A DNA stretch of 64,000 nucleotides from a virus. A program made the translations under genes and the position numbers. The notes beneath the pieces are model-generated. The model searched no databases. It was not told the origin of the DNA and saw nothing but the letters and a program-made list of their open reading frames with translations. Position 1 is the first letter of the stretch. Every line of letters starts with the position of its first letter. Below are positions 1,359-45,488 of the stretch, one piece after another. The stretch spans positions 91,387 through 155,386 of the IMG/VR virus record IMGVR_UViG_3300017989_000003; one strand, written 5' to 3'.

Positions 1359-1702
1359 GGGGGTTTGTGATGAAACAACTAGAATTTAAGTTTGTACAGA
1401 CAGGTATGTACAGAGTCGTCTACGAACTCTGTAAAGAGTGGATAGACGGTACGCTATCCTTTCATACAGAGTCGTTTCGATGCCGTATTAAACGTATTAT
1501 TCGTAAGTACTATATAGTTACAAAGTCACAGGAGGAAGCTCTTATTACAATAAGTAAGAGTATCATGAATAGACTAATGAGTTCTAAAGATTTTGTGACT
1601 AACAACATAAGAAAAGTAACTTCAGTTACGGTTGAAACTATAGAGCTATTTGTCACGTTTCAAAAGACAGGAACAACAAATGAAATCAAAAATAAATATT
1701 AA
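1355..1702 (+). CDS. hypothetical protein, N-terminal QLEFKF motif (start may be 1370)
   Basis: ORF in operon context. Confidence 0.7.
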   Translation: MRGFVMKQLEFKFVQTGMYRVVYELCKEWIDGTLSFHTESFRCRIKRIIRKYYIVTKSQEEALITISKSIMNRLMSSKDFVTNNIRKVTSVTVETIELFVTFQKTGTTNEIKNKY

Positions 1703-2039
1703 TATATGTAAAGTCTGTGGTATGCCGTGTTGTAAATTCGATAAGGACAGGACGCGTACGGATTTTATACTGTTGACGCAGAATGAATGTGAAGCGTTGC
1801 GACCTGAGCATAAAACAACAAGGTTTGGTGTTATAGTCAACAGGTGCGGATTCAGGGTGCGTTTACGGATAGTAAACGATGATGGGGATAAGCAATGTCC
1901 CTATTTGTCAGACACAGGTACATGTATGATAGCCTACGCACTTCCTAGTACATGAGTGGATTTTATAGAAAACTGTAGTAAGTACTTGCAGTTAAGTAAG
2001 GAATCAAAAGTAACCCCGTTATTCTTTTGGAGGAGATGA
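1680..2039 (+). CDS. YkgJ-like cysteine-cluster protein with in-frame TGA (1953-1955)
   Basis: CxxCxxxCC and CPYL motifs; colinear with paralog 4579..4926 past the TGA; read-through ends 1 nt before next ATG. Confidence 0.7.
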
Positions 2040-2040
2040 G

Positions 2041-2313
2041 ATGAATTTATTCATAAATACAAAGTACGTATGGAAAAATGGGTTTAATAAAACCAAGTCG
2101 GGTGTGATGGTTAATCCTAGGTTATTCTACTTACTATTGGATTACGTCAGGTATATAATTAATGTTGATATTAGTCATTTAGTGACGTCAGTTGTTTACC
2201 GTTTTTACAGTGATGAGATGAGTTGTCCATCACAGAACTACGTATCATTCCTCAATAGGATTGAGAACATGATTACCAGTATTAAGTACACGACGGGGGT
2301 ATGCTATGGCTAA
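2041..2313 (+). CDS. hypothetical protein
   Basis: ORF with GGAGG RBS. Confidence 0.7.
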   Translation: MNLFINTKYVWKNGFNKTKSGVMVNPRLFYLLLDYVRYIINVDISHLVTSVVYRFYSDEMSCPSQNYVSFLNRIENMITSIKYTTGVCYG

Positions 2314-2572
2314 GATTTCGCAGAAACGAGTAAAGGAGCTACAAGACAAAGAAAATAAAGCAGAAGAAAGGAAACAAACATTTCTAGCGTACTCTAATAA
2401 GTTAGAACGTGAGGGTATAAATATAAAAAATTCACTGCATTTATACTCTGAGGACTTTCCAGAGTCAATAGAAGCGTACGTTAAGATGTTGATTAGTAAA
2501 AAAGTAGCTGAACGTATAATACAGGTAGCTAGGGATATTAGCGCCATTGCCTGTGACATTCCGTTAGAATGA
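2306..2572 (+). CDS. hypothetical protein
   Basis: ORF overlapping upstream stop. Confidence 0.7.
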   Translation: MAKISQKRVKELQDKENKAEERKQTFLAYSNKLEREGINIKNSLHLYSEDFPESIEAYVKMLISKKVAERIIQVARDISAIACDIPLE

Positions 2573-2968
2573 TAAAATGGTGTCCAGTCAGGTATAAGAC
2601 ACCATTAATTAATTAACTGTATAGACACCTCATAAAGCAAAAAATGCGTGTCCAGTCAGGTATATAGGATTAATTCTATGTATTTGGTAAAAGGATACGC
2701 ATTTTTGCGTTACATGCGGGCGGGCGCATTAGGTGCATGTGTGAAACAATTATTTGAACACGCAAGAGTACTCACGTATGTACGTGTGAAACAGTTATTT
2801 GATTTCAGGTACATACGCAGGAAAGCTACGAGTAATTCAAGCTGTTGTTTTCAAACATAATCTCCTTTTAGCATATAGCTATTTGCTCCATATTTCACGC
2901 AGGAACCATTTTATGGCATTAATCCATATGAAAGTATGCTTTTTGACGAAAAAGCTAAAATAATGGCA

Positions 2969-3001
2969 AATTTACAAGATTTACATTTTCTATATAACTA
3001 T
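2969..3001 (+). promoter_or_regulatory. promoter-like 33-mer (TTTACA-N16-TATAAC), near-identical to 6276..6308
   Basis: 29/33 identity between the two copies; both lie upstream of + genes. Confidence 0.6.
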
Positions 3002-3058
3002 GTAGAGCGATAAGGAAGTCGCTTAAATTTCTAAAACTTTTTTCAAAAGAGGTGTACT

Positions 3059-3262
3059 ATGTCAGAAATCATCATCGGTAAGAACGTAAAAGCAAAAATC
3101 GAAAAAAACATTCTTACCATCAAAGTTGATTTATCTCAGGATTTCGGTGACACGAAATCAGGTAAGTCGATTTCGATTGGCACTACTGGTGCCCCAGCTA
3201 CAATCGATAACAATGGAGAGCAGATTTCGGTCGGACTCAATGTCTACAAGCCGAAAAGCTAA
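3059..3262 (+). CDS. small hypothetical protein (SGKS motif)
   Basis: ORF with GAGGT RBS, followed by terminator. Confidence 0.8.
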   Translation: MSEIIIGKNVKAKIEKNILTIKVDLSQDFGDTKSGKSISIGTTGAPATIDNNGEQISVGLNVYKPKS

Positions 3263-3288
3263 ACGAGTAAACTGAACTGCTGAACAAG

Positions 3289-3326
3289 AGTAGCACGAAG
3301 CTGTTTTCGTGCTACTCACTTTTTTT
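3289..3326 (+). terminator. intrinsic terminator
   Basis: GAGTAGCACGAA/TTCGTGCTACTC stem followed by T-run. Confidence 0.8.
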
Positions 3327-3348
3327 GAAATTCTTACATAGGTGTATC

Positions 3349-3717
3349 ATGAAAGAATTAACTTTAACTGAACTATTGGATAAAGAGACAGAATTGATAG
3401 TGTACTTCAGGAAGCACATGCTGGTTCTGATTTCTGAGAATAAGAAGAAAAAATCTCAGAATAACAGAACGACCAGAACTGTGAAAACTAGTTCTGGTAA
3501 ACTGAGAAGGTACAGAGTTTTCTTCGGGGCGAACCGTCGACCTGATTTCGATGTTTCAAACCCGACAGAAAAAGACTTTAGATTCAAAACAGTAAATAGC
3601 AGTTCCAGATTATTTAGCTCAAAAGAGCTAACTGAGGAACTGATAAGAATTCTTACTTACCATTCAACAGAGGTGTATTATGTTAGCATTAAACATATCA
3701 CAGCACGAGCCAACTGA
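3349..3717 (+). CDS. hypothetical basic protein
   Basis: ORF; ATG 3349 behind AGGTG. Confidence 0.65.
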   Translation: MKELTLTELLDKETELIVYFRKHMLVLISENKKKKSQNNRTTRTVKTSSGKLRRYRVFFGANRRPDFDVSNPTEKDFRFKTVNSSSRLFSSKELTEELIRILTYHSTEVYYVSIKHITARAN

Positions 3718-4048
3718 GTTACAGGTGCTCAGTGGCTTAATGGAGCTGAATAAGAGCGACGTCACAAGTATGAAGAAGCTTCTGACGTTTGACGAGGCTC
3801 CAGATATTTCAGAAATGAAAAATCGTGCAGAACAGCTTGTAAAAATTTGCGCCAACAACTACAACTTGAAAGTAGTTATGCTGGCACCAGCCCCGTTCTT
3901 CACATCAATTCTCGAGAATACTTTCAAAGAAAATGGGTACAAAGTTGTGTATTCGTTTTCTCAGCGAAAGTCCGTCGAGAAAAAAATGCCTGATGGAACC
4001 GTCAAAAAAGTAAATGTTTTCGAATTTCAAGATTTCATAGAGGTATAG
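3680..4048 (+). CDS. Csx20/Csx15-like small protein, candidate ring nuclease
   Basis: N-terminal LNISQHxxTxxQ and C-terminal YSFSxRxSxE...DGxVxKxxxF motifs. Confidence 0.5.
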   Translation: MLALNISQHEPTELQVLSGLMELNKSDVTSMKKLLTFDEAPDISEMKNRAEQLVKICANNYNLKVVMLAPAPFFTSILENTFKENGYKVVYSFSQRKSVEKKMPDGTVKKVNVFEFQDFIEV

Positions 4049-4049
4049 T

Positions 4050-4128
4050 ACAACATGTTGTGGTGTGTAGTATACAAAATACTACTACACCGTTACTGGT
4101 TGCAAAATACCCCTTGACAAAATTGACA
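4050..4128 (+). repeat. extended dispersed repeat copy (NrdR-box-like palindrome + GTTACYGGTTGCA + CCCCTTGACA)
   Basis: Colinear with inverted copy 9217..9286. Confidence 0.75.
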
Positions 4129-4129
4129 A

Positions 4130-4501
4130 ATGGAGGGAAAAACAATGGACTTTAACGAGATTTCTGAAAACAATGAACTTGCTCAGAATCACATAAACGA
4201 GCAAAGTTCCACTGAAATAAATGATTTCGTAGATTTCTTGGAAGCTGTTGAGAAAATCATCGAAGGTGAATCTCACAGCTCATTCGTTTTACGAATTCCA
4301 CTGGATGACATTAGATTAAAAAAACTCGAACAGGCACTGAAAGATGTTGATTTGGCGATAAACGCCAATCAACTCTACTGCCACAAAGGATGTGGCAGTA
4401 GAATCCTCTGGTTCGGCACCGCTGTCGGTGCCGAAACGTTTACCTGCGGTAAATGCACCGCCAGAGTAAATGTAAACCCCCCGTTGAGAAGAAAAAATTA
4501 A
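4130..4501 (+). CDS. hypothetical protein, C-terminal Zn-ribbon
   Basis: ORF; CxxxC...CxxC. Confidence 0.7.
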   Translation: MEGKTMDFNEISENNELAQNHINEQSSTEINDFVDFLEAVEKIIEGESHSSFVLRIPLDDIRLKKLEQALKDVDLAINANQLYCHKGCGSRILWFGTAVGAETFTCGKCTARVNVNPPLRRKN

Positions 4502-4527
4502 CATGCAATTGGCATGATACACCTAGT

Positions 4528-4562
4528 GAGAGTCTAGCCCTAGTGGCTAGACTCTCTTGTTG
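4528..4562 (+). terminator. hairpin/terminator
   Basis: GAGAGTCTAGCC/GGCTAGACTCTC stem. Confidence 0.65.
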
Positions 4563-4578
4563 TATTTAAGGAGGAACT

Positions 4579-4926
4579 ATGGATGATATGGATATATGCG
4601 AAGTTTGCGGCATGGAATGCTGTAGATTTAAGGATAGAACCAGAAAGGGGTTCATACACATCCACGGTGAAGTGTATGAGAAGCTACTCCCTGAGCATCA
4701 AGGCGAATACTATGGAGAAACTCGGGACCATGGTTTCAGGGTATTTCTAATAGAAAAGGGCGACTTGTTGGTTTGCCCATATCTATCTGATGATATGAAA
4801 TCTTGTAAAATCAGTTATTGTCCTCCACGGACATGTTTGGAGTTCATAAGGAGCTGCGGGAAAGCTAAGCAGATAGTCGCTGAGTTACCGTTATTTATTA
4901 AACTGAAAGGAAAAAATGAAAAATAG
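4579..4926 (+). CDS. YkgJ-like cysteine-cluster (Fe-S/Zn) protein
   Basis: CxxCxxxCC, CPYL..C.I...PxxCxxF motifs; AGGAGG RBS. Confidence 0.8.
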   Translation: MDDMDICEVCGMECCRFKDRTRKGFIHIHGEVYEKLLPEHQGEYYGETRDHGFRVFLIEKGDLLVCPYLSDDMKSCKISYCPPRTCLEFIRSCGKAKQIVAELPLFIKLKGKNEK

Positions 4927-5143
4927 CCTAATCGTCGTCAACTTCAACGGTAGGAACCGCATTTTAGAAATCCTCCGTGATATATTCCATCAGGTCGTTT
5001 TCGATTATGTATCAGACTACAGAGGTGAACGAGCAAAGTTCACTATATTCTGTGTCGGCGAACCAGCTGAAATCGGGCTGTTAAAATCATATTGTCATAC
5101 TCTAGCCAGATATGACAATGACGTATTGGAGTATGTGGCATAA
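4916..5143 (+). CDS. hypothetical protein
   Basis: ORF. Confidence 0.65.
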   Translation: MKNSLIVVNFNGRNRILEILRDIFHQVVFDYVSDYRGERAKFTIFCVGEPAEIGLLKSYCHTLARYDNDVLEYVA

Positions 5144-5145
5144 CA

Positions 5146-5577
5146 TTGTCCAATCGGGTATATAACATTGTGAGGTTACAAATGACAGAAAAACATAATG
5201 AAGTGAATATGGCGTTGTATCATCTGGCAAAATTGATGCAATACTGCCAGACAACTAAAATAGAGGAAGTACCCTCTGTTTCAGACACTCCATTAAATAT
5301 AAGTATTCACTTAATCAGATGGATAGAGCTATTATTTATTGGAATAAGCTATGAACTGGCTTTTCCAGAACAGGTTAAGAAAAGGAACGGGGGATTATTA
5401 GTACATCTGAAAGATTTGCCGAATATTGAAAAATTTAGAGGGAAAAAGAAAGTCGAAAAGGCAATCTGGATTTATAAGAAGTATAATAATCCCAAACACC
5501 CAATAGCAGTGGATTTATATTATATGGATTGCATCCCTGAGATAAGGGATTTTGAAAAAGAGTATTTCGGTAAATAA
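5146..5577 (+). CDS. hypothetical protein (start may be 5182)
   Basis: ORF. Confidence 0.65.
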   Translation: MSNRVYNIVRLQMTEKHNEVNMALYHLAKLMQYCQTTKIEEVPSVSDTPLNISIHLIRWIELLFIGISYELAFPEQVKKRNGGLLVHLKDLPNIEKFRGKKKVEKAIWIYKKYNNPKHPIAVDLYYMDCIPEIRDFEKEYFGK

Positions 5578-5612
5578 ATACTGTCCAATCGCAAACCTAT
5601 GGAGGTGGTTAT

Positions 5613-5867
5613 ATGAGAATAACTAGACACAAACCTAGCAACTTATATCCTAGAGGTTGCATTACAAAGCGAAATACAATTGTAGTTCGTTCTATGGATG
5701 AACTCTATAAGATACTAATAGGTATCTTTCAAGTTCCAACAATCGCAGTAGATACTTTAGTTCATAAATTAGAAAAGATTGGGATTGTAGAAATACATCA
5801 TTATAATCACAATATGAATACGTGGTTTGATTATATGTTTATCAAATCACATAACTTCAGATACTAA
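5613..5867 (+). CDS. hypothetical protein
   Basis: ORF with GGAGGT RBS. Confidence 0.7.
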   Translation: MRITRHKPSNLYPRGCITKRNTIVVRSMDELYKILIGIFQVPTIAVDTLVHKLEKIGIVEIHHYNHNMNTWFDYMFIKSHNFRY

Positions 5868-6275
5868 TAGTGTCCAGTCGGATACATAATGAAATATAAT
5901 ATACTGTCCAGTCGGACATAATGGGTATAAAGTAGTGTCCAGTCAGGCATTGCTTTATACCCGTTTTGTATATATACACACATGCGTACGTACGTATGTG
6001 AAGAATATAGGTAAAGGGAATCGAACTACGAGCATAGAGAATAGAATTAGTTATTAATCGGATTAGATTATTATTAACTTGCGATATGTATTGGTTTTTA
6101 CTAATCTGATAAAATGAGTATTTTATCAAATACTGGTACGAGTATAGAGTTGTCTGCGCCTATCTCGCAAGGGTTTATTGCCAGTTGTAAAGCAAAAAAA
6201 AACTAGTGGAATTTGTCAAAAAAATACGATTTTTACTTGAATTTTGATTAGTTTTTTACTAATATATTATTAGCT

Positions 6276-6308
6276 AATTTACATGATTTGAAATTTCTAT
6301 ATAACTAT
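6276..6308 (+). promoter_or_regulatory. promoter-like 33-mer upstream of sigma factor
   Basis: Near-identical to 2969..3001. Confidence 0.6.
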
Positions 6309-6347
6309 ATAACAAAAAAGATTTCTTTTAATTAAAAGAGTAAAAAC

Positions 6348-6938
6348 ATGCAAAAAAAGAAATACACTAATAATTATGAAGTATCACTAAAAAACTATGA
6401 CTTGATTTTTAGTGAAAACAAAAATCAAGTGTACAAAGTGATAATAGCTAAATCTAGATTATTCGGATTTAGTTATTTTGAGGATTTTTTACAATTGACT
6501 AGAATTGCTTTATTTGAAGCAATCGAAACATACGATGAAACTAGGTCTGCTTTTAATACTTGGTTTTACATTGTACAATCAAAGCATATTGAAATATATA
6601 TCCGTACATTTATTAAGCGAGAGAAATCATTTTCTAATACTATTAATGATAATAATGAAAGTGATAACGAAAATCCAAGTCAATTTCAAATACCAGTTTT
6701 TGATTTTGATTTAGCGGATTTAGAATATAGGAATTTAAGAATATTAAAGTTTAAGAAATTGTTAAAAGCATCGACCACGCCGTACGAGCGTCGATTGCTT
6801 TATATGAATATTGTCGATGAGTTAAACCAACAAGAGATTGCTAATTCATTAAATGTTTCAAGGCAAACCATTTCAATAAGGATACAACGGGCGATAGCCA
6901 AGATACGAGAGTCCGCTTGGTTATATGATTTAAGATAG
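6348..6938 (+). CDS. sigma-70 family RNA polymerase sigma factor (regions 2 and 4)
   Basis: EDFLQ...ALFEAIETYD...FNTW (region 2); NQQEIANSLNVSRQTI...RAIAKIR HTH (region 4). Confidence 0.85.
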   Translation: MQKKKYTNNYEVSLKNYDLIFSENKNQVYKVIIAKSRLFGFSYFEDFLQLTRIALFEAIETYDETRSAFNTWFYIVQSKHIEIYIRTFIKREKSFSNTINDNNESDNENPSQFQIPVFDFDLADLEYRNLRILKFKKLLKASTTPYERRLLYMNIVDELNQQEIANSLNVSRQTISIRIQRAIAKIRESAWLYDLR

Positions 6939-7051
6939 TGATTCTCAATTTTACAGTAAAGGTTTTTGTTTTTTAAGATTTAAGATTTCTAAATTTAACT
7001 TTTGACAATTGACCATCTGTACAGTTGTCAATACAAAAATGAGGTGTTATC

Positions 7052-8446
7052 ATGCGAAAAAATTCCAAAACCAATTCCAAAACCAATTCCAAAACCAATT
7101 CCAAAACCAATTCCAAAACCAAAACTGACAAACCGAAAACCGAAATCAAAACCGAAAAAACTGAAACAAATGAAATTCAAGTCTTTGAAAACATGATTTC
7201 AGATTTTCGAAAATCTGAAAAGAAAGTGGAAATTGTAAATTTACCGATTACAATTTTTGAGAAAATATCGGGGTTAAAGCCCGATAGTCAATTGTCAAGG
7301 TTTGATAGTTTGAAGAAAAATTCAAAGAAAAAAGACGACTTGAGCCAGTGTACGAGCTCAAGCCAATTGCCTGCAATAACAATTCAAATTTCACAGAATG
7401 ATGTGAAATTGACAGATGGCAATCGTCGGGTTAAATTTTGCTTAAGCAATAAGCAAAATTCTGCTTTTTCACAAATAAAAGCTAGATTAGAAAAGGTAGA
7501 GATATCTGACAGTTGTCTACTTCAGGATTCTAATCTTACTTTTGATTTTCAATCTTTCTTGTACAACTATCTTCTTGCTAGTGAAGAAGATAAAAAATTG
7601 CCAATAGTCAAAAAGCGGATTATTGACATATCTTCCTTTTTAGTCGCTTTTGGATTTATCGAAAGCGTAAAAGACATTGAATCTATGGATTTGCAAAAAG
7701 TCAAATCATTGCCGAAAATCTCAAAATCTTTTCTAGCATTAATGCTGGAAAAGAACTACGAGATAGACGGCAATAAAAAATCTTCCTTAGATTTAATATG
7801 TCGAGTATCGAACGAAAAGAAAACTACAATTCTTAATAGTCTAAAAAAATCAATCAATAAAAAAGACTATTTGTACAGAATTTCATTGCTGTACAATGAA
7901 TTAAAAGAAAAATCGGAAAGTGGTAAAACTGATAAGGAAGATAAAAAATCGGAAAATGGTAAAACTGATAAGGAAGATAAAAAATCAAATAAAAAGAAAG
8001 CTCCTGCCACGAGCAAGAAAGAGTCGAATTACACAAATATCAATAATGATAACTGTGTAACTAATGCTTTGATGCACTCGACTGATACACATATAATATT
8101 TCTGATACTAACGCAATTCGTATTTTGCGAATTGTTCAGAAATAAATATCCTATCCGTACAATTTCAGAAGCAGACATAAGCAACGAGAAAAACATTTTT
8201 GATGATTGTACTGATATAATTAGTGACTATACTGTCACTAATTATAAAGCTGCAATTAAATCATCTAAAAAGAATCTAACTAATATTCGACAGCAATTAA
8301 TCACATGCCAAAAAAATATAGTCGCTAAACAAGATTTAGCGAAAATAGGGTATATTATCAATTATCTAGATGCTTTTATGGAAATAACGACCTTAGATGA
8401 TATTTATGAGTTATTAGGGGTAAAAGAATTAATTTCTAATGAATAA
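7052..8446 (+). CDS. ParB/Srx-like N-terminal domain protein with TNSK repeats
   Basis: PAITI...LTDGNRR motif; 12-nt tandem repeat at 7058-7118; ~33-nt duplication near 7909-7987. Confidence 0.5.
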   Translation: MRKNSKTNSKTNSKTNSKTNSKTKTDKPKTEIKTEKTETNEIQVFENMISDFRKSEKKVEIVNLPITIFEKISGLKPDSQLSRFDSLKKNSKKKDDLSQCTSSSQLPAITIQISQNDVKLTDGNRRVKFCLSNKQNSAFSQIKARLEKVEISDSCLLQDSNLTFDFQSFLYNYLLASEEDKKLPIVKKRIIDISSFLVAFGFIESVKDIESMDLQKVKSLPKISKSFLALMLEKNYEIDGNKKSSLDLICRVSNEKKTTILNSLKKSINKKDYLYRISLLYNELKEKSESGKTDKEDKKSENGKTDKEDKKSNKKKAPATSKKESNYTNINNDNCVTNALMHSTDTHIIFLILTQFVFCELFRNKYPIRTISEADISNEKNIFDDCTDIISDYTVTNYKAAIKSSKKNLTNIRQQLITCQKNIVAKQDLAKIGYIINYLDAFMEITTLDDIYELLGVKELISNE

Positions 8447-8488
8447 TAATAATTTAATGTACAATCGTTAAATTATTTCTCAAAAATA

Positions 8489-8529
8489 AAAAGCGCTAGA
8501 ATCACAAAAAAGATTCTAGCGCTTTTTTT
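8489..8529 (+). terminator. intrinsic terminator (bidirectional-looking)
   Basis: AAAAGCGCTAGAATC/GATTCTAGCGCTTTT. Confidence 0.8.
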
Positions 8530-8577
8530 GTATTTTCACTTTTTGCATTAATCAATCATATATACAATTGATTATAT

Positions 8578-8625
8578 AAAGCTTGTATTTGCTTAGTCTA
8601 TACTTTGCAAATACAAGCTTTTTTT
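8578..8625 (+). terminator. second hairpin/terminator
   Basis: AAAGCTTGTATTTGC/GCAAATACAAGCTTT followed by T-run. Confidence 0.7.
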
Positions 8626-9216
8626 ATTGCTTTCATACTTTAATACTAATAGCATATCTAATAAATTCTAGCGCTAATACAATTAAAATAAAAGTATGTT
8701 GATAAATGAAAAATAAACAATTGTAAATAATTGTATTAGCAAATCTAATGCCAAATATCATATACAATAATACCTAGTCAACTAGTGGATTATCAGCTAA
8801 TCGTATAAATTCACTTGTACAATACAGTATATATTATGATTATGATTTCAACCGATTAGTTAATTATATGATTAGCATTATTGCTTTTTATCAGTATTGA
8901 CAAATGTATGCGCAATGACAAAATAGAAAATAGTAAAATTTCAAATTGACAAAAAGCAATACCGAACCTAAGGCTTAATTGCCAACTGTCAGAGCCACCC
9001 ATACATTTGTCAATTTTGACGGGTGGCGCCCAAGAATGACCACCCCCTCAAGATTTACTGAAAATTCGAATGTCAAGCACTCCACGGTCAAAAATCAGGC
9101 TCACGTCAACCACCTCTCAACACCCGTCCCACAAAGCAGTCACAACAGCCACCATTGCCAAAACAGCCACCCAGGTACTATGGTGAGTAAAAAAATTTTT
9201 GGAAAAAATCTAGGTG

Positions 9217-9286
9217 TGTCAAGGGGTTTTTTGCAACCGGTAACGGCGTAGTATGGTTTTGGGGGTAGTACACCACAACATATAGT
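9217..9286 (-). repeat. extended dispersed repeat copy, inverted relative to 4050..4128
   Basis: Direct comparison. Confidence 0.75.
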
Positions 9287-9448
9287 CTCGATGGAAACAG
9301 CCGTTTCAGGCGTTATTTATCGACTGGACGCCCATTGTACCTGGGTTTATCGTCTCGATGTCATTATTTACTTTTTGGTTCTCATACAAAAATGCTGGAG
9401 TTATCATTTGTTCTAATTCGTAAATCACTTAGTCCATAAACAAGTGAA

Positions 9449-10570
9449 CTACCCTCGCCTAAAGGCGAGAGCTTCCTGTAAAGTTACAGAACACTCTCTT
9501 TCGAGAATGGCTTGTCCCAAGCAAAATATGTTTTTAGCTGCGTTCACGTCTCTATCTTCTTCATAACTACAAGAACACTTATATCGTCGCTTATGCAATG
9601 GCATGTCTTGTTTCTGACCACAATTGTTACAAGTCTTTGAAGTATCTTGTGGATTGATTTTTACAAGCGTTTTAGTTTTGTAAGAAAGATAGGATATGAA
9701 TTTCGCTAATTGAGAATTTCTTAATTCTCTGTTTAATCCTCTTATTTCAGATTCAGACATTTTCTTCAAAGCAAGGTCTTCGCAAATAATTGTATCGTAT
9801 TTGGAGGATAGGTTTTTTGAAACCTTATGCAAAAAATCATTAATTTTACGATTCTTTACATCATACAATCTTTGAATAACCTCGCTCAAAAATCTAAAAT
9901 ATCTTGACCCCTTTTTACATTGCGTATCCCTCCTTGATTTAAGTTTATTGATTTTCTTATCAAAATATTTTGCGTGTGTTTTATTTTTGATAATTTTACT
10001 CTCTGATGTTGCTACAAGATTTGTTATACCGACATCTATCCCAATAATGCCGTTACCTAATTTCTCTTTTTCGTAGTCGGTTGTTATACAAAGAAACCAT
10101 TTATTATTTTCACACTTAATAGTTACTGTTTTGATGTTTCCTTGAATATCCCTGTGTCTATTGAATTTCACATCTCCATAAATTTTTGTATGGAAAATAT
10201 TACCTTGAATCGAATAACCCGATTGAGGATAAATTATACTGAAGAAATTACGACAACTTCTAAATTTAGGAAACCCTGCTTTTTTACCGCACTTAACCCT
10301 ACGGAAAAAATTTTTATATGAAATATCTAATCTGTAGGTTACCTGTTGGACAACCTGACTGTGAATTTCAGCTAAAACGGGGTCTTTAGATTTCAATTCA
10401 GGTATTTGCTTTTGCAAATCATATCTTGATAAACTCGTTTTGTCTTTTTTATATGCTTCGATTTTTTGATTTAGAAAATAATTATACAACCAATTGAGCT
10501 TATTGGCATGAAACCACAACTGGCTTTGCTGTTCTTTTGAAGGATGCAACCTAAACTTATAAGTTATCAT
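9449..10570 (-). CDS. tnpB: RNA-guided endonuclease TnpB
   Basis: HTH_OrfB N-terminus, RuvC GIDVG / CEDL / DRDVNAA, Zn-finger. Confidence 0.95.
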
Positions 10571-10692
10571 TCTTGCAAACTCCTTTGGTTTTCAATATAT
10601 TCTTTCAAAACATCAATAGTTACGTTTCCAGTCGTCGCCAAAAAATAAGAAGGCGACCAAAACGAATCCCCCCATAATTTATCTGATATTTC
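10567..10692 (-). pseudogene. tnpA: C-terminal remnant of IS200 Y1 transposase
   Basis: Translates to [32 protein letters not shown]; no HUH-containing N-terminus. Confidence 0.85.
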
Positions 10693-10703
10693 ATACCAGT
10701 TTG

Positions 10704-10901
10704 TCAATCAACTGATGGGTTGGACTCCCCAAGAGCGATTATTTTGACTGTCCCACATTCAGGACAGGCATACAAATTGGTTTTTAAGCTTCTATCCATC
10801 ATTTTACCGCCAAACACAACACCCTCAATCGGGTCTCCAATAATGAAGAACTTAATTTGGTCTGGGTCTTGGTCGTCATAGCCGCATGCTTTACATTTCA
10901 T
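10704..10901 (-). CDS. small Zn-ribbon protein
   Basis: CxxC...CPEC. Confidence 0.75.
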
Positions 10902-10964
10902 GGTAATCCTTTCAGTTTGTTGTTGTTGTATTACTTCTATTCCCTGTCTTTTTACCTCTTTGGG

Positions 10965-11563
10965 TCAATCACAAAATTCTCTGTCTGCTTCCAATTGCTT
11001 CGCAGTTTCATCAATAGCGTCAAATAGCCCTTCATCTTCGTTTTTACAATATAGTTCTTTCATATAATTGATGATATTTGTGTAGTTAATAGCCTTGGCG
11101 TCCATATCTATGAACGCCGAGTGAATCACGCTTAACCTTTTGCATAAAATCTCGTAGAAAAACTTATAATCAATCGTTTTGTCATAATTCAGGCAGTACT
11201 CAGTAATATAAAATCTATTATTAGAGTACTCTATCAATCCCCAGCCATCAGGTATTTCAGAAGGTTTAGAAGGTTCTTTGGTGTCACAAAATATCTTATA
11301 GCATTAACAGTGCATAATTTCTTTTTCTTCTGGTTAAAGAAATCTGCTCTACTAATTTTTATTTCAATTAACATAGGCAAACTGATGTAATAACACTTTG
11401 GAAAAGCCAGTATATCAATTTTTTCGTTGAACTTTCTTGGTTTATGTAATTGGACTTCAGTAAAAACCATCGAGCAATTTAGTCGTCTAGGCATACCACT
11501 TTTAGGTTTTAACAGCCAAGCTATAGTTCTATCAGTTAGTTCTTTGGTTTTTATATCAGCCAT
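10965..11563 (-). pseudogene. frameshifted PD-(D/E)xK-type (MmcB-like) nuclease, split into 11234..11563 and 10965..11237
   Basis: E...IDILA...IEIKISRADF motif; adding one base near 11265 restores RYFVTPKNLLKPSEIPDGWGLIEY. Confidence 0.7.
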
Positions 11564-11714
11564 TTGCTCCTTCTGTTCCTTTTGTTGCTTTATTTACTTC
11601 CGAATAATCTTTTGCGCTTTTTTCGTTCGCCTCTTTTATTATTTTATCAATATCTTTTTTATTAATTAATTTACGGGCTTTTTTAAGCATTTTTTCCATA
11701 TCTTTCGCTTTCAT
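11556..11714 (-). CDS. small Lys-rich hypothetical protein (52 aa)
   Basis: AAGGAG RBS + ATG; fills gap. Confidence 0.6.
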   Translation of the reverse strand: MKAKDMEKMLKKARKLINKKDIDKIIKEANEKSAKDYSEVNKATKGTEGANG

Positions 11715-11724
11715 CGCTTACTCC

Positions 11725-11997
11725 TTATTTATTAAATTTTAATAACTTCCAACTAATAGTTAAAAAATCACCATCCTCATAAATTTTATATCCTTTTTCT
11801 TCATAATGCTTGACAATTTGTTTTCTTAAATATTTCAGAGTGATTGATAACTCAATCTCATATAAGCCTCATATTGTATAACTTAGAATGATTTTGTCAA
11901 TTTTCTCTATCGCTTCTTCAATAGTATATTCAAAAGAAATTGACAGATAATTAACTCTGTTATTGTCCGATAATTTATAAGCTTCTTCCGCTTTCAT
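11725..11997 (-). CDS. hypothetical protein (GY...ISW type) with in-frame TGA (11871-11869)
   Basis: AAGGAG RBS; frame open on both sides of TGA; ends at next RBS. Confidence 0.65.
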
Positions 11998-12000
11998 CGC

Positions 12001-12351
12001 TTACTCCTTATTTAGTTCGGTATTTTCCACAGCTTTATCTACACTATCCCAATTAATTGTACTTTCTATGTATTCAGTTTCAGAAAGAGAAAACCATTTT
12101 TCCCCCCATGGCAATTTGTTCTCACAAGATTTACAAATAAACTTCTCCCTAAACCTCTTAACCAGCAATTTCAGATTTTTGTTTACAGAGGCGTTCACTT
12201 CGTCTCTTGACTTTGGTAAACCTTGAGAATTCTTATTCCATGGATTAACTGTTTGCATTGAAACAATGGTTCTCTGTCTATTTTTTCCGCATTTTTCGCA
12301 AACACCTTTGATAACTGTTTTTGATACCACTGTTTGAAAATCTGTTTTCAT
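12001..12351 (-). CDS. hypothetical Zn-binding protein
   Basis: CxxC ... QTVNPWN ... CxxC. Confidence 0.75.
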   Translation of the reverse strand: MKTDFQTVVSKTVIKGVCEKCGKNRQRTIVSMQTVNPWNKNSQGLPKSRDEVNASVNKNLKLLVKRFREKFICKSCENKLPWGEKWFSLSETEYIESTINWDSVDKAVENTELNKE

Positions 12352-12560
12352 TTTCCCTCACTTTTCTTTGTTCTAAATTCATAAAAATTGTATCCACTTT
12401 TATCGTCATATTCTGGTACATCTAGTAATTCGGCTAAAATTCTTTCGTGCTCTCTATGAGCATCAACATCTTCTCAGCAGCTACACCCTTCAGAGTGCAT
12501 ATAATTTGCAACCGCTTCTCTTATTTTTTCTAATAATTCTTGTTTTTCCGTTTTACCCAT
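12348..12560 (-). CDS. hypothetical protein with EGCSC(TGA) motif; in-frame TGA at 12476-12474
   Basis: TAATG overlap at start, ATGA overlap at end; fills the gap exactly. Confidence 0.7.
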
Positions 12561-12985
12561 TAATACTCCTCTATAAGTTCAGGGTTATCGTGAACATTGC
12601 CGATAATTTCTTTGAACGCTATACACAAAGAATTTATTGGCTCAATTCTGGAATCGTCTAAATACATTATGTACCATCCGTTGCCCTCAATGATGTATTC
12701 ATCGGTTTTTTCATATTCGCCGAATTTTACTATCATTAATTCATCATTATAGTCGGCAATAATATCATCTTCGTAAATTTCCTTGCCGTTTTCACCGTCT
12801 TTTGACCCTGTGTATTGCCCCACAGTTTTAGGGTCAATAGGAACTTGAACATACGATACACCGCTGTTATCATCAATCTTTACAAGCATCGAATTATTGA
12901 CTGACAACAACCCATAAACCCAGTCACCTTTATCTATTGTATGTATCTGGTCTGTAGCAATTGCTCTAAATTTTATTTCTCGCAT
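12560..12985 (-). CDS. YopX family protein
   Basis: MREIKFRA...GQYTG.KD.NGKEIYEDDI...EIIGNVHDNPEL. Confidence 0.9.
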   Translation of the reverse strand: MREIKFRAIATDQIHTIDKGDWVYGLLSVNNSMLVKIDDNSGVSYVQVPIDPKTVGQYTGSKDGENGKEIYEDDIIADYNDELMIVKFGEYEKTDEYIIEGNGWYIMYLDDSRIEPINSLCIAFKEIIGNVHDNPELIEEY

Positions 12986-12994
12986 GACTACTCC

Positions 12995-13267
12995 TTATTT
13001 AATTTCGTCTTCCCAAAACACCATATCTTTAAGTCGCATAATTTGGTTTTCCAGCGACAAAATCTTACTATCACGCAATTCCGTAGCTCTTTTTACCGCC
13101 TGTTTTTTACTCGCGAAAGCACTGAGTCCTATTTTGAACACCCCATAACTTAGTCCTATTCTTTTTCGTTCTTCTTCAGAGATATGGTAATAATTATCAT
13201 CAACAGGCTTTGCTTCTGCCGTAATAATACCTCTTGTCAGCGCTTTGTCTGTAATATAGATTTTCAT
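12995..13267 (-). CDS. hypothetical protein
   Basis: ORF with AAGGAG RBS. Confidence 0.8.
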   Translation of the reverse strand: MKIYITDKALTRGIITAEAKPVDDNYYHISEEERKRIGLSYGVFKIGLSAFASKKQAVKRATELRDSKILSLENQIMRLKDMVFWEDEIK

Positions 13268-13269
13268 GA

Positions 13270-13578
13270 CTACTCCTTAATTAATTCTTTTAATCTTTTA
13301 TTTTCATCTTCTGCATTACATAATTTAGAAACTATGCTATCAATAATTTTATCTTTTTCTTTTATTATTTCTTCATAGGTTTTACATTCAAATTTCGGAC
13401 AATCATTTTCATTTCCATCATCCCAATCACCGTCTATCTTACAACCATCTATTTCTCCTTCTCCATATCCGCAACCTACAATTATTGCGTGTTTACAAGC
13501 ATAAACTTGTAAATCTTCCCCTGTATAACAATTACCCTCGGCATAAGGTTTGTTATTTACATGCTCTTTTTTGTCCAT
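13270..13578 (-). CDS. hypothetical protein
   Basis: ORF with AAGGAG RBS. Confidence 0.75.
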   Translation of the reverse strand: MDKKEHVNNKPYAEGNCYTGEDLQVYACKHAIIVGCGYGEGEIDGCKIDGDWDDGNENDCPKFECKTYEEIIKEKDKIIDSIVSKLCNAEDENKRLKELIKE

Positions 13579-13580
13579 GA

Positions 13581-14540
13581 CTACTCCTTAAAGTTTTTGT
13601 GTCTATTATTATAATCTATACATACGTCTAAACAATTATTTCTACATATTTCATCTTTGTAACAATTATGTTTTATATAGTAATCAAATCTTTGCGCTCG
13701 CATAAAACATCCTACCTCGCCTATAGGTTCACAACCTTCTCGCATTTTGATTATGCAAGGATAATGATAATTTCCTCGAATAGCCATATCATCAAGTATT
13801 AACGGGCATTTATGATTATCTGTTTTTTGAATGCCTCGAACGTTCCGACCGTTTTTATAATTATTTACTCGATATTTTAATATTGGATGGCTGTTCAATA
13901 TTTCGTCAGGTATTTTTTCGCAAAATTCTAACATTTCATTCGATTGTGCAGAACTTATTATTCTTATATCTGCCACACCTAATTTGTGTGCAAGTTCAAT
14001 TGTTTCTAAAGATTGTTGAATATTGTTTTTATCAAATACACAGCCAACCGTAACATAAGTTAATCTTGATAATATCTGAATGTTATTAATGATTTGTTGA
14101 AAATATCCTGATGTCCCCGACATTTTATCCGCGAAAGATTCACAACAAGCATCTAAAGATATAGAGAAATCGTTAACACCTAATTTTTTTAATTTAATGT
14201 AATAAGAAGTTTTTTGCGAACCATTAGTTGATATTGCAATTCTTTCTATCGAAGGTTTGTTTTTTGTATATTTTATTAATTCAGGTAACCATTTTACAAG
14301 AGTTGGTTCTCCTCCACTAAATCTTATGTTTTTTAATCCTTCATTACACCACAAATCAACAATATATTTTGCATGTTCGTAGGTAATATTTGCATCTTCC
14401 TGTGTTCCACGGCAATATTTGCAATTAAAATTGCATCTATTAGTCAATAATAACTCACATCTCCACAAAGGGCTGTTTATACCTGAATTTTCTGCTCTTT
14501 CGTCAGATAATGTATAAAATCCTATATCTTCCAGTTTCAT
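13581..14540 (-). CDS. radical SAM enzyme (MoaA/PqqE-like fold)
   Basis: CNFNCKYC, FSGGEP, STNG; start at ATG 14540 because the upstream extension lies in the tRNA-like gene. Confidence 0.9.
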   Translation of the reverse strand: MKLEDIGFYTLSDERAENSGINSPLWRCELLLTNRCNFNCKYCRGTQEDANITYEHAKYIVDLWCNEGLKNIRFSGGEPTLVKWLPELIKYTKNKPSIERIAISTNGSQKTSYYIKLKKLGVNDFSISLDACCESFADKMSGTSGYFQQIINNIQILSRLTYVTVGCVFDKNNIQQSLETIELAHKLGVADIRIISSAQSNEMLEFCEKIPDEILNSHPILKYRVNNYKNGRNVRGIQKTDNHKCPLILDDMAIRGNYHYPCIIKMREGCEPIGEVGCFMRAQRFDYYIKHNCYKDEICRNNCLDVCIDYNNRHKNFKE

Positions 14541-14555
14541 AATACTCCTTAAAGT

Positions 14556-14676
14556 TGGTGGGGCGGGCAAGGTTCGATACTTGCACGACAGGTTTACAGC
14601 AACCTTCTTTTACACCTGTCTTACTGCTGTTAGTATTTGCCACAGACTATTAGCGTCTAACTTTCGCCACCGCCCC
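14556..14676 (-). ncRNA. 121-nt tRNA-like RNA with expanded anticodon/variable region
   Basis: 7-bp acceptor GGGGCGG/CCGCCCC + ACCA; D-arm GCG/CGC; T-arm GCAAG/CTTGC; no canonical anticodon arm. Confidence 0.8.
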
Positions 14677-14689
14677 AATAATTTTTATG

Positions 14690-14811
14690 TTACTCTTTGG
14701 CTAAGTTTGGGTTACAGTGAATGTTGTCGATAATTTCAAATGAGAAATCCATCATCATTGCAAATCTAACAGTTGTTAGGTCATAAATGCTCTAAATTTT
14801 ATTTCTTGCAT
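14690..14811 (-). pseudogene. internally deleted YopX remnant
   Basis: Starts MQEIKFRAF and ends FEIIDNIHCNPNLAKE in a different frame. Confidence 0.7.
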
Positions 14812-15008
14812 GTTTTCTCTTTCGTATCCTTATACGTTTGTGTCTGTGTTTGCTGCTCTAACAATTCAATGATTTTTTTGTTTTGCTGTTCGATTGGTGA
14901 TAAAAAACCGTACATAAGTATTGCATAACATATCAATATTAGTGCTGTTAATAAATAATGATTAACCATTAAATCAGAACGCAACTTTTCATAATCACTT
15001 TTGTTCAT
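14799..15008 (-). CDS. small membrane protein
   Basis: One hydrophobic segment; GAGGTG RBS. Confidence 0.7.
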   Translation of the reverse strand: MNKSDYEKLRSDLMVNHYLLTALILICYAILMYGFLSPIEQQNKKIIELLEQQTQTQTYKDTKEKTCKK

Positions 15009-15030
15009 TACTCACCTCTTCAAATAATAT

Positions 15031-15216
15031 TTAATACCCCTCTCCCCAAACAATATGACCAATATCGCTTGTAGAATTTTTATCAAAAGAATAAATAGTA
15101 CTTATCCCGTTATTGCAAGCAGGACATACTTCTGGTCATGTACTATCTATTGGAATATAAATAACATTATCACAAATTCCACAATGACATATTTTGACAG
15201 TGCTTTCTTCCATCAT
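15031..15216 (-). CDS. small Zn-ribbon protein with in-frame TGA (15138-15136)
   Basis: MMEESTVKICHCGICDNVIYIPIDST*PEVCPACNNG...; ATGA overlap with upstream gene. Confidence 0.7.
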
Positions 15217-15794
15217 TCACCTTCTTTCATGCCGTCAGAATCAGCACACCTGAAGTCATCAATAACGGATTGATTATCATTAATAAAATCTTTATCTTGC
15301 ATCGCTTGTTTAAGATTCTCCAATTTTTCTTCTTTTGATTGTGTTTTAAGTCTTTTTCGTGTTTTAAGTCTTTTTCTTTGTTTTGTTCGAACTATTCCAT
15401 CTTCTAATTTATCCATTCTTGCTTTACGTTCATCCTCTATTTTTTCGTTATGCTTAAGAACTTCTTCATAAAGCTCAAGGTCACTAAAAAATTGATGATT
15501 ATAATCAGGAATATCCCTTTGCATAATTTCATCTCCACCCATTCTAAAAGTGTCTAATATGACAACTTCATAACCTTTTTGTTTTAATAATTCAATAAGT
15601 TCGTTGTATACATCTCTATGACCAATAAAATCGTCAGCTATCTTTCCTGACTCTAAAGAATTTTTCTGTGCTTTTGGCAATAATTCTTGGCATAAATCAT
15701 GCCAATCAATCTCATCACCGTAAAATATTATTTTATCATATTCATCAAACCACTGATATTCAAGTAAATAATATTCTTTCGGACTTAAGCGCAT
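15213..15794 (-). CDS. hypothetical protein, paralog of 17826..18269
   Basis: Shared YG...W...CQ.L.PKA, IG..DV...LIE.L...GY.V motifs. Confidence 0.8.
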   Translation of the reverse strand: MRLSPKEYYLLEYQWFDEYDKIIFYGDEIDWHDLCQELLPKAQKNSLESGKIADDFIGHRDVYNELIELLKQKGYEVVILDTFRMGGDEIMQRDIPDYNHQFFSDLELYEEVLKHNEKIEDERKARMDKLEDGIVRTKQRKRLKTRKRLKTQSKEEKLENLKQAMQDKDFINDNQSVIDDFRCADSDGMKEGE

Positions 15795-15796
15795 GA

Positions 15797-17041
15797 CTAC
15801 TCCTTAATTACATCTGATTTATTGCAAACTTCAATTAGCTCGATAACTACTTCGAGACGTGTTTTTCCTGTTTGCTCTGCGACATATTCAATATCACCTT
15901 GGATATTTATCGAATTAAATGTTGGATTGTAGTAGTCTGTGCTGACTAAATAGTTTGTCTCATCGTTAATGCAATACATTTCGAATTTTGTCTGATTCCT
16001 GATATCGAAAAGCAACTCAATCAGTTGGTCGAATTTATACTTATAGTATTCCTCGCTGGTTTCGTAATGTTTTATGATTTTTTCATAAACTTCTACCTGT
16101 GAACATTCCCAATACTTACAATACTCTTCTAATTGAATAATTCGTGAACCGTCTAACAACATGTCGTGAATACTAAAATTATCTTTTAGATACCATTCAG
16201 CTTTTTCTCTTAGTTTTTCTCGGCGTTTTACTTCTGTTTGGCAAGCATCATATCCTCTGTTGTCGTCACATGTTTCACATTCTTTGTGAGGATATTCTCC
16301 GAAATTCTCACATTCTTTCTTGCTTTTTTGCTCTTTCAGTTTCTCAAATTGCTGTTTTGCTGATTCTATTTCTTCAGTGTTTAAGTCGCTAAAACCTTTA
16401 TATATTGTAAATTTTTCTGTAACAGCACTAATATATTTTCCATCTACATAAAAGTGGTATGGAAAATTTTCGTTTTTCTCAGGTTCATACTTGACCTCGA
16501 TTTTGCGAGCTTTAGGCTTTGCCCCATACTCCAGTTTCTCGCAGTTTTCTATTTCTTTTTCTCTATCCTCGACTTCTTCAAGTACTTCAGCCTCTCGCGT
16601 CTTCTCTATCACAGTTTGCTCTTCCTCAACCACTTCCTTTACAGCAATTATCGATATACGCGCTTCAAGGTTTTTAATGCGCTGCGCAAGCGCATCTGTT
16701 TGCGTAGCAAGCGCCTTAACGTGCTCCTCTATTGGCGCGACTTTTAGAGCACAGGGACAGTTTGTCAGGGCGTCAACTATTAAATTTTTGACATGTTTTT
16801 CGTCAATTGGCACTATTACATCGTCAGGACGAAGTTCGTGTGTTTTTGTACACCAATGTTCTGTGTTTACTATTTTTTCAGCTTGCTCAATCGTTATATC
16901 TTTGCCGAAATGCTTTGCTACTCCTTGAAGTACTTCTGCCGCTGTTTTGGTGCCTCTTTTCGGCATAGAGCTATCATCCTCAATTTCTTTGTTTTCGTTA
17001 ACAGAATTTTCCATTTTTTCCTCCATATCTGGGTAACTCAT
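15797..17041 (-). CDS. hypothetical coiled-coil/mosaic protein
   Basis: Long ORF with RBS. Confidence 0.8.
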   Translation of the reverse strand: MSYPDMEEKMENSVNENKEIEDDSSMPKRGTKTAAEVLQGVAKHFGKDITIEQAEKIVNTEHWCTKTHELRPDDVIVPIDEKHVKNLIVDALTNCPCALKVAPIEEHVKALATQTDALAQRIKNLEARISIIAVKEVVEEEQTVIEKTREAEVLEEVEDREKEIENCEKLEYGAKPKARKIEVKYEPEKNENFPYHFYVDGKYISAVTEKFTIYKGFSDLNTEEIESAKQQFEKLKEQKSKKECENFGEYPHKECETCDDNRGYDACQTEVKRREKLREKAEWYLKDNFSIHDMLLDGSRIIQLEEYCKYWECSQVEVYEKIIKHYETSEEYYKYKFDQLIELLFDIRNQTKFEMYCINDETNYLVSTDYYNPTFNSINIQGDIEYVAEQTGKTRLEVVIELIEVCNKSDVIKE

Positions 17042-17044
17042 ACG

Positions 17045-17290
17045 TTACTCCTTTATTGGTTTATAGTTTTCTTTATCTTGAGCCTGCGCTAGTGCAATGT
17101 CAATTTGCTTCTGTATACACGTAGGGCTTCTTCGTACCCTTCCTGTATTAGTTGTTAATAACAACTCGTTGTACACCATACAATAGTAACTACCGTGAAT
17201 AGGTTTATAGTACAACCTACAATTTCCACAAGTTATTTTCCCTACTTCCTGAATAGTTCGAATTTCAATTTTGTGCACTGGTTCCTCCAA
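17045..17290 (-). CDS. small Cys-rich hypothetical protein
   Basis: ORF; start uncertain. Confidence 0.6.
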   Translation of the reverse strand: MEEPVHKIEIRTIQEVGKITCGNCRLYYKPIHGSYYCMVYNELLLTTNTGRVRRSPTCIQKQIDIALAQAQDKENYKPIKE

Positions 17291-19107: not shown

Positions 19108-19359
19108 TTACTCCTTGACGGTATTTCTAATTTCTAATACCGTCTTTCGGATTCCATCCGCTTTTTTCTTTACGTCCATCATAGCGCTTCGTACCCGTGT
19201 TCCTGCTGCTTTGTTTCCATTGTCGGTTTTTGTTACATCATCCTCGAGAGCAACAAGTTGTTCCATCATTTCATTGTAGAGTACGGAAATTGACAGTTGC
19301 GCTTTTTTTACTGTCTTCTTTTTCTTCGAGCTTTTAGCCATAGACATTACTCCTTTCAT
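19108..19359 (-). CDS. histone H1-like Hc1 family protein
   Basis: GNKAAGTRVRSAM motif. Confidence 0.75.
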   Translation of the reverse strand: MKGVMSMAKSSKKKKTVKKAQLSISVLYNEMMEQLVALEDDVTKTDNGNKAAGTRVRSAMMDVKKKADGIRKTVLEIRNTVKE

Positions 19360-45251: not shown

Positions 45252-45488
45252 TTAGCCAATTCTTGTTACGTTTAATGCTAGTTGTCCCTTATTGTTCTCA
45301 GCAATATCAAACTCTACTTTATCGCCAGCACATAGGGATTTATACTCGCTATCTGTTCTAATTTCAGTGTAATGCACAAAACAGTCCGGATTTCCGGTAC
45401 GTTCAATGAAACCGTATCCTTTATCTCCATCAAACCATTTTACAACACCAGTTACGTTGTACGCTAAGATATTAACTTCTTTTGCCAT
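45252..45488 (-). CDS. csp: cold-shock domain protein
   Basis: GVVKWF...KGYGFI, FVHY RNP motifs. Confidence 0.92.
   Translation of the reverse strand: MAKEVNILAYNVTGVVKWFDGDKGYGFIERTGNPDCFVHYTEIRTDSEYKSLCAGDKVEFDIAENNKGQLALNVTRIG

Follow-up and report, generated by a model that had tools for sequence, protein, structure and literature searches.

The analyses described here concern a window of 64,000 nucleotides (nt), which is the final 64 kb of the complete virus record IMGVR_UViG_3300017989_000003 (155,386 bp, with direct terminal repeats), and in particular a set of small genes of this genome whose reading frame contains a single in-frame TGA codon. Predicted genes for a T4-like major head protein, a maturation protease, a sigma-70-type factor, Hc1 and YopX indicate that the virus is a bacterial phage; the sequencing runs that contain it are labelled as sediment and seawater metagenomes, with no RNA run among those listed, which has no bearing on expression. 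A first-pass annotation had reported four genes in the window that fill the space between their neighbours if one internal TGA each is read through. The translations agree with this description, as each of genes 1 to 4 has a ribosome-binding site (RBS) or a coupled start, with gaps to the neighbouring genes of no more than 22 nt, and a fifth gene of the same kind, separated from its neighbours by 12 nt and 1 nt, was found outside the window. The genes, the in-frame TGA codons and the hairpins that follow them (lengths in amino acids, aa; Cys, cysteine) are as follows.

1680..2039, plus strand: gene 1, a 119-aa YkgJ/CxxCxxCC-like protein, TGA at codon 92
1953..1955, plus strand: in-frame TGA of gene 1, where the YkgJ-type motif has its last conserved Cys
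1971..1993, plus strand: hairpin of gene 1, 9 bp with one bulged U; its loop, AAGU, lies 24 nt from the UGA
4579..4926, plus strand: intact paralogue of gene 1, with TGT at the codon aligned to the gene 1 TGA
11725..11997, minus strand: gene 2, a 90-aa protein, TGA at codon 43
11869..11871, minus strand: in-frame TGA of gene 2
11842..11857, minus strand: hairpin of gene 2, 6 bp, starting at +11 nt, loop GUUA at 17 nt
12348..12560, minus strand: gene 3, 70 aa, of a widespread uncharacterised phage family with the motif EGCSCC, TGA at codon 29
12474..12476, minus strand: in-frame TGA of gene 3, replacing the invariant third Cys
12445..12466, minus strand: hairpin of gene 3, 8 bp, loop AUAGA at 16 nt
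15031..15216, minus strand: gene 4, a 61-aa zinc-ribbon-like protein with two CxxC motifs, TGA at codon 27
15136..15138, minus strand: in-frame TGA of gene 4, between the Cys pairs
15097..15130, minus strand: hairpin of gene 4, 11 bp, 10-nt loop at 16 nt
C1:48534-48878, plus strand: gene 5, outside the window, 114 aa, with a Cys-rich stretch that contains the TGA (codon 18)
Outside the window, plus strand: hairpin of gene 5, with a stem of 7 bp, an energy of -8.5 kcal and the loop GUUU at 16 nt, the most similar of the five to a bacterial selenocysteine insertion sequence (bSECIS)

No second lesion was found in any of the five genes. Since genes 2, 3 and 4 have no start codon downstream of the TGA, their 3' halves are not separate genes; gene 5 has an alternative TTG start 7 codons past the TGA, which lacks an RBS. 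All five genes are at most 125 aa long, a size class that holds 108 of the 613 Cys codons of the genome, and the database entries for such genes are stubs of 28 and 42 aa.

The four in-frame TGAs of the window are real. For genes 1 to 4, the codons were confirmed at the level of contigs, in which minor alleles are invisible: Logan contigs from four runs showed no substitution and no indel over positions 1500-17100. Genes 2 to 4 are covered by run X4, which is not flagged as a possible source of the record, while the pieces covering gene 1 come from runs X2 and X3, which may be source runs. A separate Joint Genome Institute (JGI) assembly, with 1-2 single-nucleotide polymorphisms (SNPs) over 14.6-20.9 kb, also retains the TGAs of genes 2 to 4. 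Assembly error as the cause of the TGAs of genes 1 to 4 was ruled out by these concordant contigs.

Interrupted genes were searched for with two genome-wide scans, i.e., a tiling of the whole genome under a codon model, in which one read-through of a chosen stop type was allowed, and a gap-filling scan, supplemented by a manual review of gaps. The tiling scan picked four TGA genes (genes 2, 3, 4 and 5) and no TAG or TAA gene, the gap-filling scan recovered all five TGA genes, including gene 1, and the manual review contributed only a YopX remnant. Neither the scans nor the manual review yielded a credible gene interrupted by TAA or TAG; the TAA and TAG read-through candidates that appeared under relaxed settings were either neighbouring genes that lie in frame and have a start of their own, or frames that extend a short way into the following gene. 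Planted stops were recovered to a similar extent for the three stop types (23-25 of 65 each, approx. 36-38%, in both scans), and the scans are thus unbiased and also incomplete, so that more interrupted genes, whatever the stop codon, may have been missed. If five random nonsense changes are drawn from each gene's own codons, the probability that all are TGA is 0.0028 (0.0009 for all TAG). The earlier observation that every internal stop is a TGA therefore holds across the genome, the added fifth gene included, and the pattern of stop interruptions is non-random in the statistical sense.

In both genes for which homologues could be compared, the TGA stands where the homologues have Cys. The TGA column of gene 3 is Cys in all 89 distinct homologues (58 TGC and 31 TGT), and gene 3 keeps every column with at least 80% conservation downstream of the TGA. 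In gene 1, the TGA corresponds to Cys in two of two homologues, one of them being the paralogue at 4579-4926, as the first-pass annotation had noted; in the alignment of the three sequences, seven Cys columns are invariant if the TGA is counted as one. No Pfam or NCBIfam hidden Markov model (HMM) matched gene 1, and a search of IMG/VR with the gene 1 alignment found no homologue; when compared to PF03692 clusters, the paralogue scored 0.94 by features and 0.64 by template modelling (TM) score. The probability that a mutation to TGA arose from a Cys codon was calculated as 0.45 for gene 3 and 0.23 for gene 1 (given in this order). Atlas features of gene 3 were at most 0.79, and its model made with AlphaFold2 (AF2; pLDDT, the predicted local distance difference test, 78) had no fold match in the PDB. 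In gene 5, a Cys at the TGA would complete a C-x3-C-P pattern as its first residue. Gene 2 showed a weak match to PHROG 5321 (residues 2-74, spanning the TGA; E 0.008), and a search for this PHROG across 25 viral records found nothing. The TGA of gene 4 is 4 residues ahead of the second CxxC and hence not at the position of a ligand Cys; a PDB sequence search with gene 4 returned non-significant matches only, with Ala at the TGA column in rubrerythrin (E 0.42).

Hairpins were found on the coding strand downstream of all five TGAs, i.e., after the three for which they had previously been described, after that of gene 5 and also after that of gene 1, where the hairpin begins 15 nt downstream and a near-optimal fold has a loop starting with GU at 22 nt. 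The hairpin of gene 2 has a loop that agrees with the bSECIS loop rule and a weak energy of -4.5 kcal, equal to that of the upper stem of Escherichia coli fdnG; gene 4 has a near-optimal fold with the loop UGCAAU at 18 nt. In the bSECIS model, a stem of 4-16 bp bears an apical loop 16-37 nt after the UGA (PMC13188914), and the same script placed the loops of E. coli fdhF, fdnG and fdoG at 18, 19 and 19 nt, respectively. We scored a site as positive if a loop with a G anywhere in it lay 16-37 nt after the UGA on a stem of at least 5 bp with an energy of -4.5 kcal or lower, the energy cut-off being that of the weakest phage hairpin. All five sites were positive, as compared to 16-17% of small-gene or Cys codons (P = 1.4e-4), with P values ranging from 1e-5 to 2e-2 over varied window sizes and thresholds. 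Synonymously shuffled versions of genes 1 to 5 passed at rates of 6, 3, 27, 7 and 23%, respectively (joint probability 8e-6); only one of 24 terminal TGAs passed, and a hairpin at 15-20 nt was found in one of 88 homologues of gene 3 with a Cys codon. The energies of 51-nt windows were -10.6, -6.0, -7.2, -8.9 and -9.5, three of the five being at or below -7.5 kcal/mol under an energy model that differs from the original. Support differs among the genes, with the Cys evidence in genes 3 and 1 and the best loops in genes 5 and 2.

The genome otherwise uses the standard code. Among 194 called genes, TAA, TAG and TGA are the stop codons of 105, 60 and 29, respectively, and usage of TGG and TGY is normal (TGG represents 404 of 34,213 codons). 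Approximately 24 genes end on a plain terminal TGA, many of which overlap the start of the next gene, so that, as annotated earlier, TGA also serves as a normal stop. No selenocysteine (Sec) tRNA, SelA, SelB, SelD, release factor or tRNA with a UCA anticodon was found in the complete phage genome, whose sole ordinary tRNA is Ile(GAT). This result lends no support to the earlier alternative of a UGA suppressor, and any decoding of the UGAs must come from the host. One further gene end, outside the five genes, reads Cys-TGA-Gly-Leu-Lys-TAA (C1:86836-86850, plus strand) and is followed by 126 free nt; it is a possible C-terminal Cys-Sec candidate, though one without a qualifying hairpin.

We hypothesized that the UGAs are decoded as Sec by the host, guided by SelB and a selenocysteine insertion sequence (SECIS), after recent, lineage-specific changes from Cys to UGA codons. 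Judged from the sequences, this is the best reading, and we regard it as moderately probable; the phage most likely borrows host Sec machinery because five genes combine a UGA with a hairpin and because the UGA corresponds to a conserved Cys in both genes that could be checked. The phage would then infect a bacterium possessing a selenocysteine system, and the host SelB:Sec-tRNA, bound to the adjacent 3' hairpin, would decode the UGAs as Sec in competition with release factor 2 (RF2), a mechanism established for the selenoprotein genes of bacteria. In this lineage, TGY (or another codon) would have changed to TGA on separate occasions, in accessory genes that are unrelated to one another, and the TGA alleles would have been retained where a SECIS-competent hairpin was present or arose downstream. 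Such a history of mutation followed by retention would fit both the singletons and the imperfect hairpins. The TGAs would occur only in genes of at most 125 aa, and in no essential gene, because partial decoding would be costly there. We infer here that the host has SelABCD, that the hairpins bind SelB and that the inserted residue is Sec. A wider proposal, by which a single phage would have a selenoproteome to itself, with five or more small proteins that are unrelated and were newly made by Cys-to-UGA (possibly other-to-UGA) changes together with local SECIS-like hairpins, is a tentative one.

A number of observations weigh against host Sec decoding. No TGA was found in the homologues of gene 3 (0/89), one of the two search patterns having demanded Cys-Cys, which is a bias, and a TGA-specific pattern scan of IMG/VR gave four matches, all of them due to chance; as no homologue has a TGA, the UGAs are lineage-specific. 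Searches of IMG/VR, the protein database and GenBank phages provided no usable homologue of genes 2, 4 or 5, and neither the context of the TGA in gene 2, which is not Cys-like, nor its distance from the second CxxC in gene 4 indicates a Cys position. A local tblastn search of retrieved loci gave no homologue. With regard to the hairpins, the criteria were partly post hoc, the five hairpins have no sequence in common, and an energy-only test gave a P value of approx. 0.04. In the best fold, the strict bSECIS loop rule is observed in genes 2 and 5 only (2/5); near-optimal folds add genes 1 and 4, and never gene 3, in whose loop the G is outside the first two positions. When suboptimal folds were allowed for both sites and background, P was 0.09 under the strict rule and 0.17 under a looser one (Fisher's exact test). 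Some genuine bSECIS elements also fail the model (PMC13188914). A search for the host by way of TnpB gave only distant relatives (29% in GTDB and at most 46% on plasmids), and clusters contained no named members. Finally, the window contains decayed genes, namely an MmcB-like DNA-repair gene (11234-11563, minus strand), whose frame continues in 10965-11237 after a shift of one base, and a remnant of the YopX N-terminus that is interrupted by several stops (approx. 14700-14812, minus strand). Overall, the proposal of the first-pass annotation that the phage borrows host Sec machinery gains from the exclusive use of TGA, the Cys/TGA pairs and the enrichment of hairpins, and loses from the absence of UGA in homologues and the low number of loops conforming to the strict rule.

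The same decayed genes, both of which had been noticed earlier and proved to be real, bring up nonsense decay, by which five dispensable genes would each have acquired a recent nonsense mutation and would yield truncated products only. The frameshift in the MmcB-like gene is apparently due to the loss of an A in a short run of A and was the same in all contigs compared; the YopX remnant lies directly upstream of a tRNA-like RNA (described below), and an intact YopX gene is present at 12560-12985. Decay would be in keeping with the small size and accessory nature of all five genes, with TGAs unique to this lineage and with the intact paralogue of gene 1, and the nearest assemblies, being 1-2 SNPs away, offer no diverged strain that would show selection. 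While regional decay raises the prior for nonsense mutations, it does not explain the five TGAs, the two Cys positions and the five hairpins, as it requires that all of the five genes have TGA (P = 0.003), that the two genes open to testing both have Cys (approx. 0.1) and that every TGA is followed by a hairpin (approx. 1e-4 to 0.09, according to which test is used). It must also accommodate five genes without a second lesion, with the conserved downstream residues of gene 3 intact. We regard decay as a rather unlikely explanation.

Another explanation is read-through that is independent of a SECIS. Here, the host would partly read UGA as Cys or Trp, by means of a near-cognate or suppressor tRNA or a weak RF2, and this leakiness would be tolerated in non-essential genes. 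Near-cognate read-through of UGA in bacteria by a tRNA-Trp with a 4-bp stem has been demonstrated (PMC13092985), which supports this explanation, and leakiness would account for the TGA-only interruptions, for their lack of conservation and for the sites in genes 2 and 4 that do not look like Cys. It does not predict the enrichment of hairpins, however, Trp at an invariant Cys would hardly be tolerated, and the many genes that end on a plain TGA, often with an overlapping next gene, are difficult to reconcile with it; overall, we consider it unlikely.

Hairpin-guided insertion could alternatively deliver Cys, if the host, like some Desulfobacterales and Syntrophobacterales, had a selC* tRNA-Cys(UCA) together with SelB*. 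The selC* tRNA-Cys(UCA) reads opal codons as Cys (PMC5389517), which would put the native residue at the Cys columns, and the sediment and seawater labels of the source runs are consistent with such a host. Its distribution is restricted, and genomes with selC* carry a full Sec system too (PMC5389517), which counts against Cys insertion by this route; the probability of this explanation is low.

The phage genome does encode one RNA that might be regarded as a UGA reader of its own, a 121-nt tRNA-like RNA (14556-14676, minus strand) located between genes 4 and 3, in the operon of genes 2 to 4. It has an intact acceptor stem of 7 bp, A73, a CCA end and Leu-like D and T arms, along with an 8-nt T loop and an 11-nt anticodon loop, and its variable region may form an H-type pseudoknot, as predicted from its sequence. 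We take the body of this RNA to resemble tRNA-Leu (A73 and a Leu-type D arm) and to differ from tRNA-Cys (U73) and tRNA-Sec. It matched neither the tRNA nor the tRNA-Sec family of Rfam, and no relative was found in GenBank phages. The 11-nt loop includes GCA, which is near-cognate to UGA, and lacks a UCA triplet; a loop of this length next to a pseudoknotted variable region makes decoding unlikely, and taken together with the Leu-like body and the lack of an Rfam match, these features render the tRNA-like RNA a very improbable reader. A recoding under code 4/25, genome-wide or in late genes (TGA as Trp or Gly), which the first-pass annotation had likewise dismissed for the genome as a whole, would be in line with TGA being the rarest stop of the genome and is hardly credible, given that no internal TGA was found in the long or structural genes of the phage genome, TGG usage is normal, the aligned residue is Cys, neither a suppressor tRNA nor a release factor is encoded, and the intact code-11 structural genes already contradict it.

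Several other features of the window were recorded. Four genes appear host-like, i.e., those for an Hc1 histone H1-like protein (19108-19359, minus strand), a cold-shock protein (45252-45488, minus strand), a sigma-70-type factor (6348-6938, plus strand) and a MoaA-like radical SAM enzyme (13581-14540, minus strand). The ribonucleotide reductase large subunit (47014-51387, minus strand) contains an intein and a LAGLIDADG domain according to precomputed Pfam matches, and a Csx20-like protein (3680-4048, plus strand) matched NF040559 with an E value of 4.9e-8, below the curated cut-off. Two IS200/IS605 TnpB genes are present (9449-10707, minus strand, with a 46-aa TnpA fragment, and 25273-26400, minus strand), and a 464-aa open reading frame (ORF) opens with a short tandem repeat (7052-7130, plus strand) that codes for SKTN units. 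Contigs from X1 and X4 join position 1572 to 6247 and omit 4.7 kb that include gene 1 and its paralogue; the junction, whose short side is only 23 nt, may reflect either a variant with a deletion or a repeat that is unrelated.

If the UGAs are decoded, gene callers would truncate or miss such genes, the combination of an in-frame UGA and a hairpin would predict a host bacterium that uses Sec, and the origin of Sec codons and the laxity of the SECIS requirement of SelB could be tested directly on five sites that are independent and not conserved. Host Sec decoding, if true, would make the full-length products dependent on selenium and a Sec-using host, and a phage selenoproteome would mean that new Sec codons arise in dispensable phage genes and not in redox enzymes. 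We found no phage-encoded selenoprotein in the literature, in a search that left most subscription journals outside; a 2026 review of prokaryotic selenoproteomes does not mention phages (PMC13188914), the viral selenoproteins that we found are poxvirus peroxidases (PMC8310308), and one paper reports a phage tRNA-Sec and no selenoprotein.

Compared to the E. coli selenoprotein genes fdhF, fdnG and fdoG, the phage genes likewise have an in-frame UGA in an otherwise intact ORF, in a genome where UGA is also a stop, with Cys in homologues (genes 1 and 3) and a hairpin loop 16-24 nt downstream; the upper stem of gene 2 begins at +11, as in the E. coli selenoprotein genes. In contrast to the latter, they are phage-encoded, have no Sec machinery of their own and do not encode oxidoreductases, no homologue has a UGA, the strict loop is present in two of five, and two sites are not evident Cys columns. 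Candidates from the Olavius symbionts, which are Sec-rich deltaproteobacteria (PMC1976440), are similarly singleton TGA/Cys pairs with a candidate SECIS; these are cellular genes from organisms with known Sec systems, and sequencing error is possible there, whereas several assemblies agree for the phage. As homologues of genes 1 and 3 lack the UGA on which the scheme of that study relies (PMC1976440), the phage genes represent selenoprotein candidates and not a selenoprotein family.

Alternatively coded phages (code 4/15/25; Borges et al., bioRxiv 10.1101/2021.08.26.457843) also have in-frame TGAs in some genes, with the standard code in others; there, TGA stands for Trp or Gly, mainly in structural and lysis genes and often along with a suppressor tRNA; the phage described here differs in that the TGAs are in five small accessory genes, with Cys columns and hairpins, and the text of Borges et al. 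mentions neither cysteine nor selenocysteine. The selC* tRNA-Cys(UCA)/SelB* system (PMC5389517) would place Cys at UGA in anaerobes, and is encoded by the host, with no such gene in the phage. The poxvirus selenoproteins (the glutathione peroxidases of molluscum contagiosum and fowlpox viruses; PMC8310308) provide a parallel for a virus that uses host Sec machinery; the poxviruses have a eukaryotic SECIS and captured host enzymes, whereas the phage has a geometry of the bacterial type and phage-specific genes. The distinctive point of the present case is the presence of five unrelated selenoprotein candidates within one phage genome.

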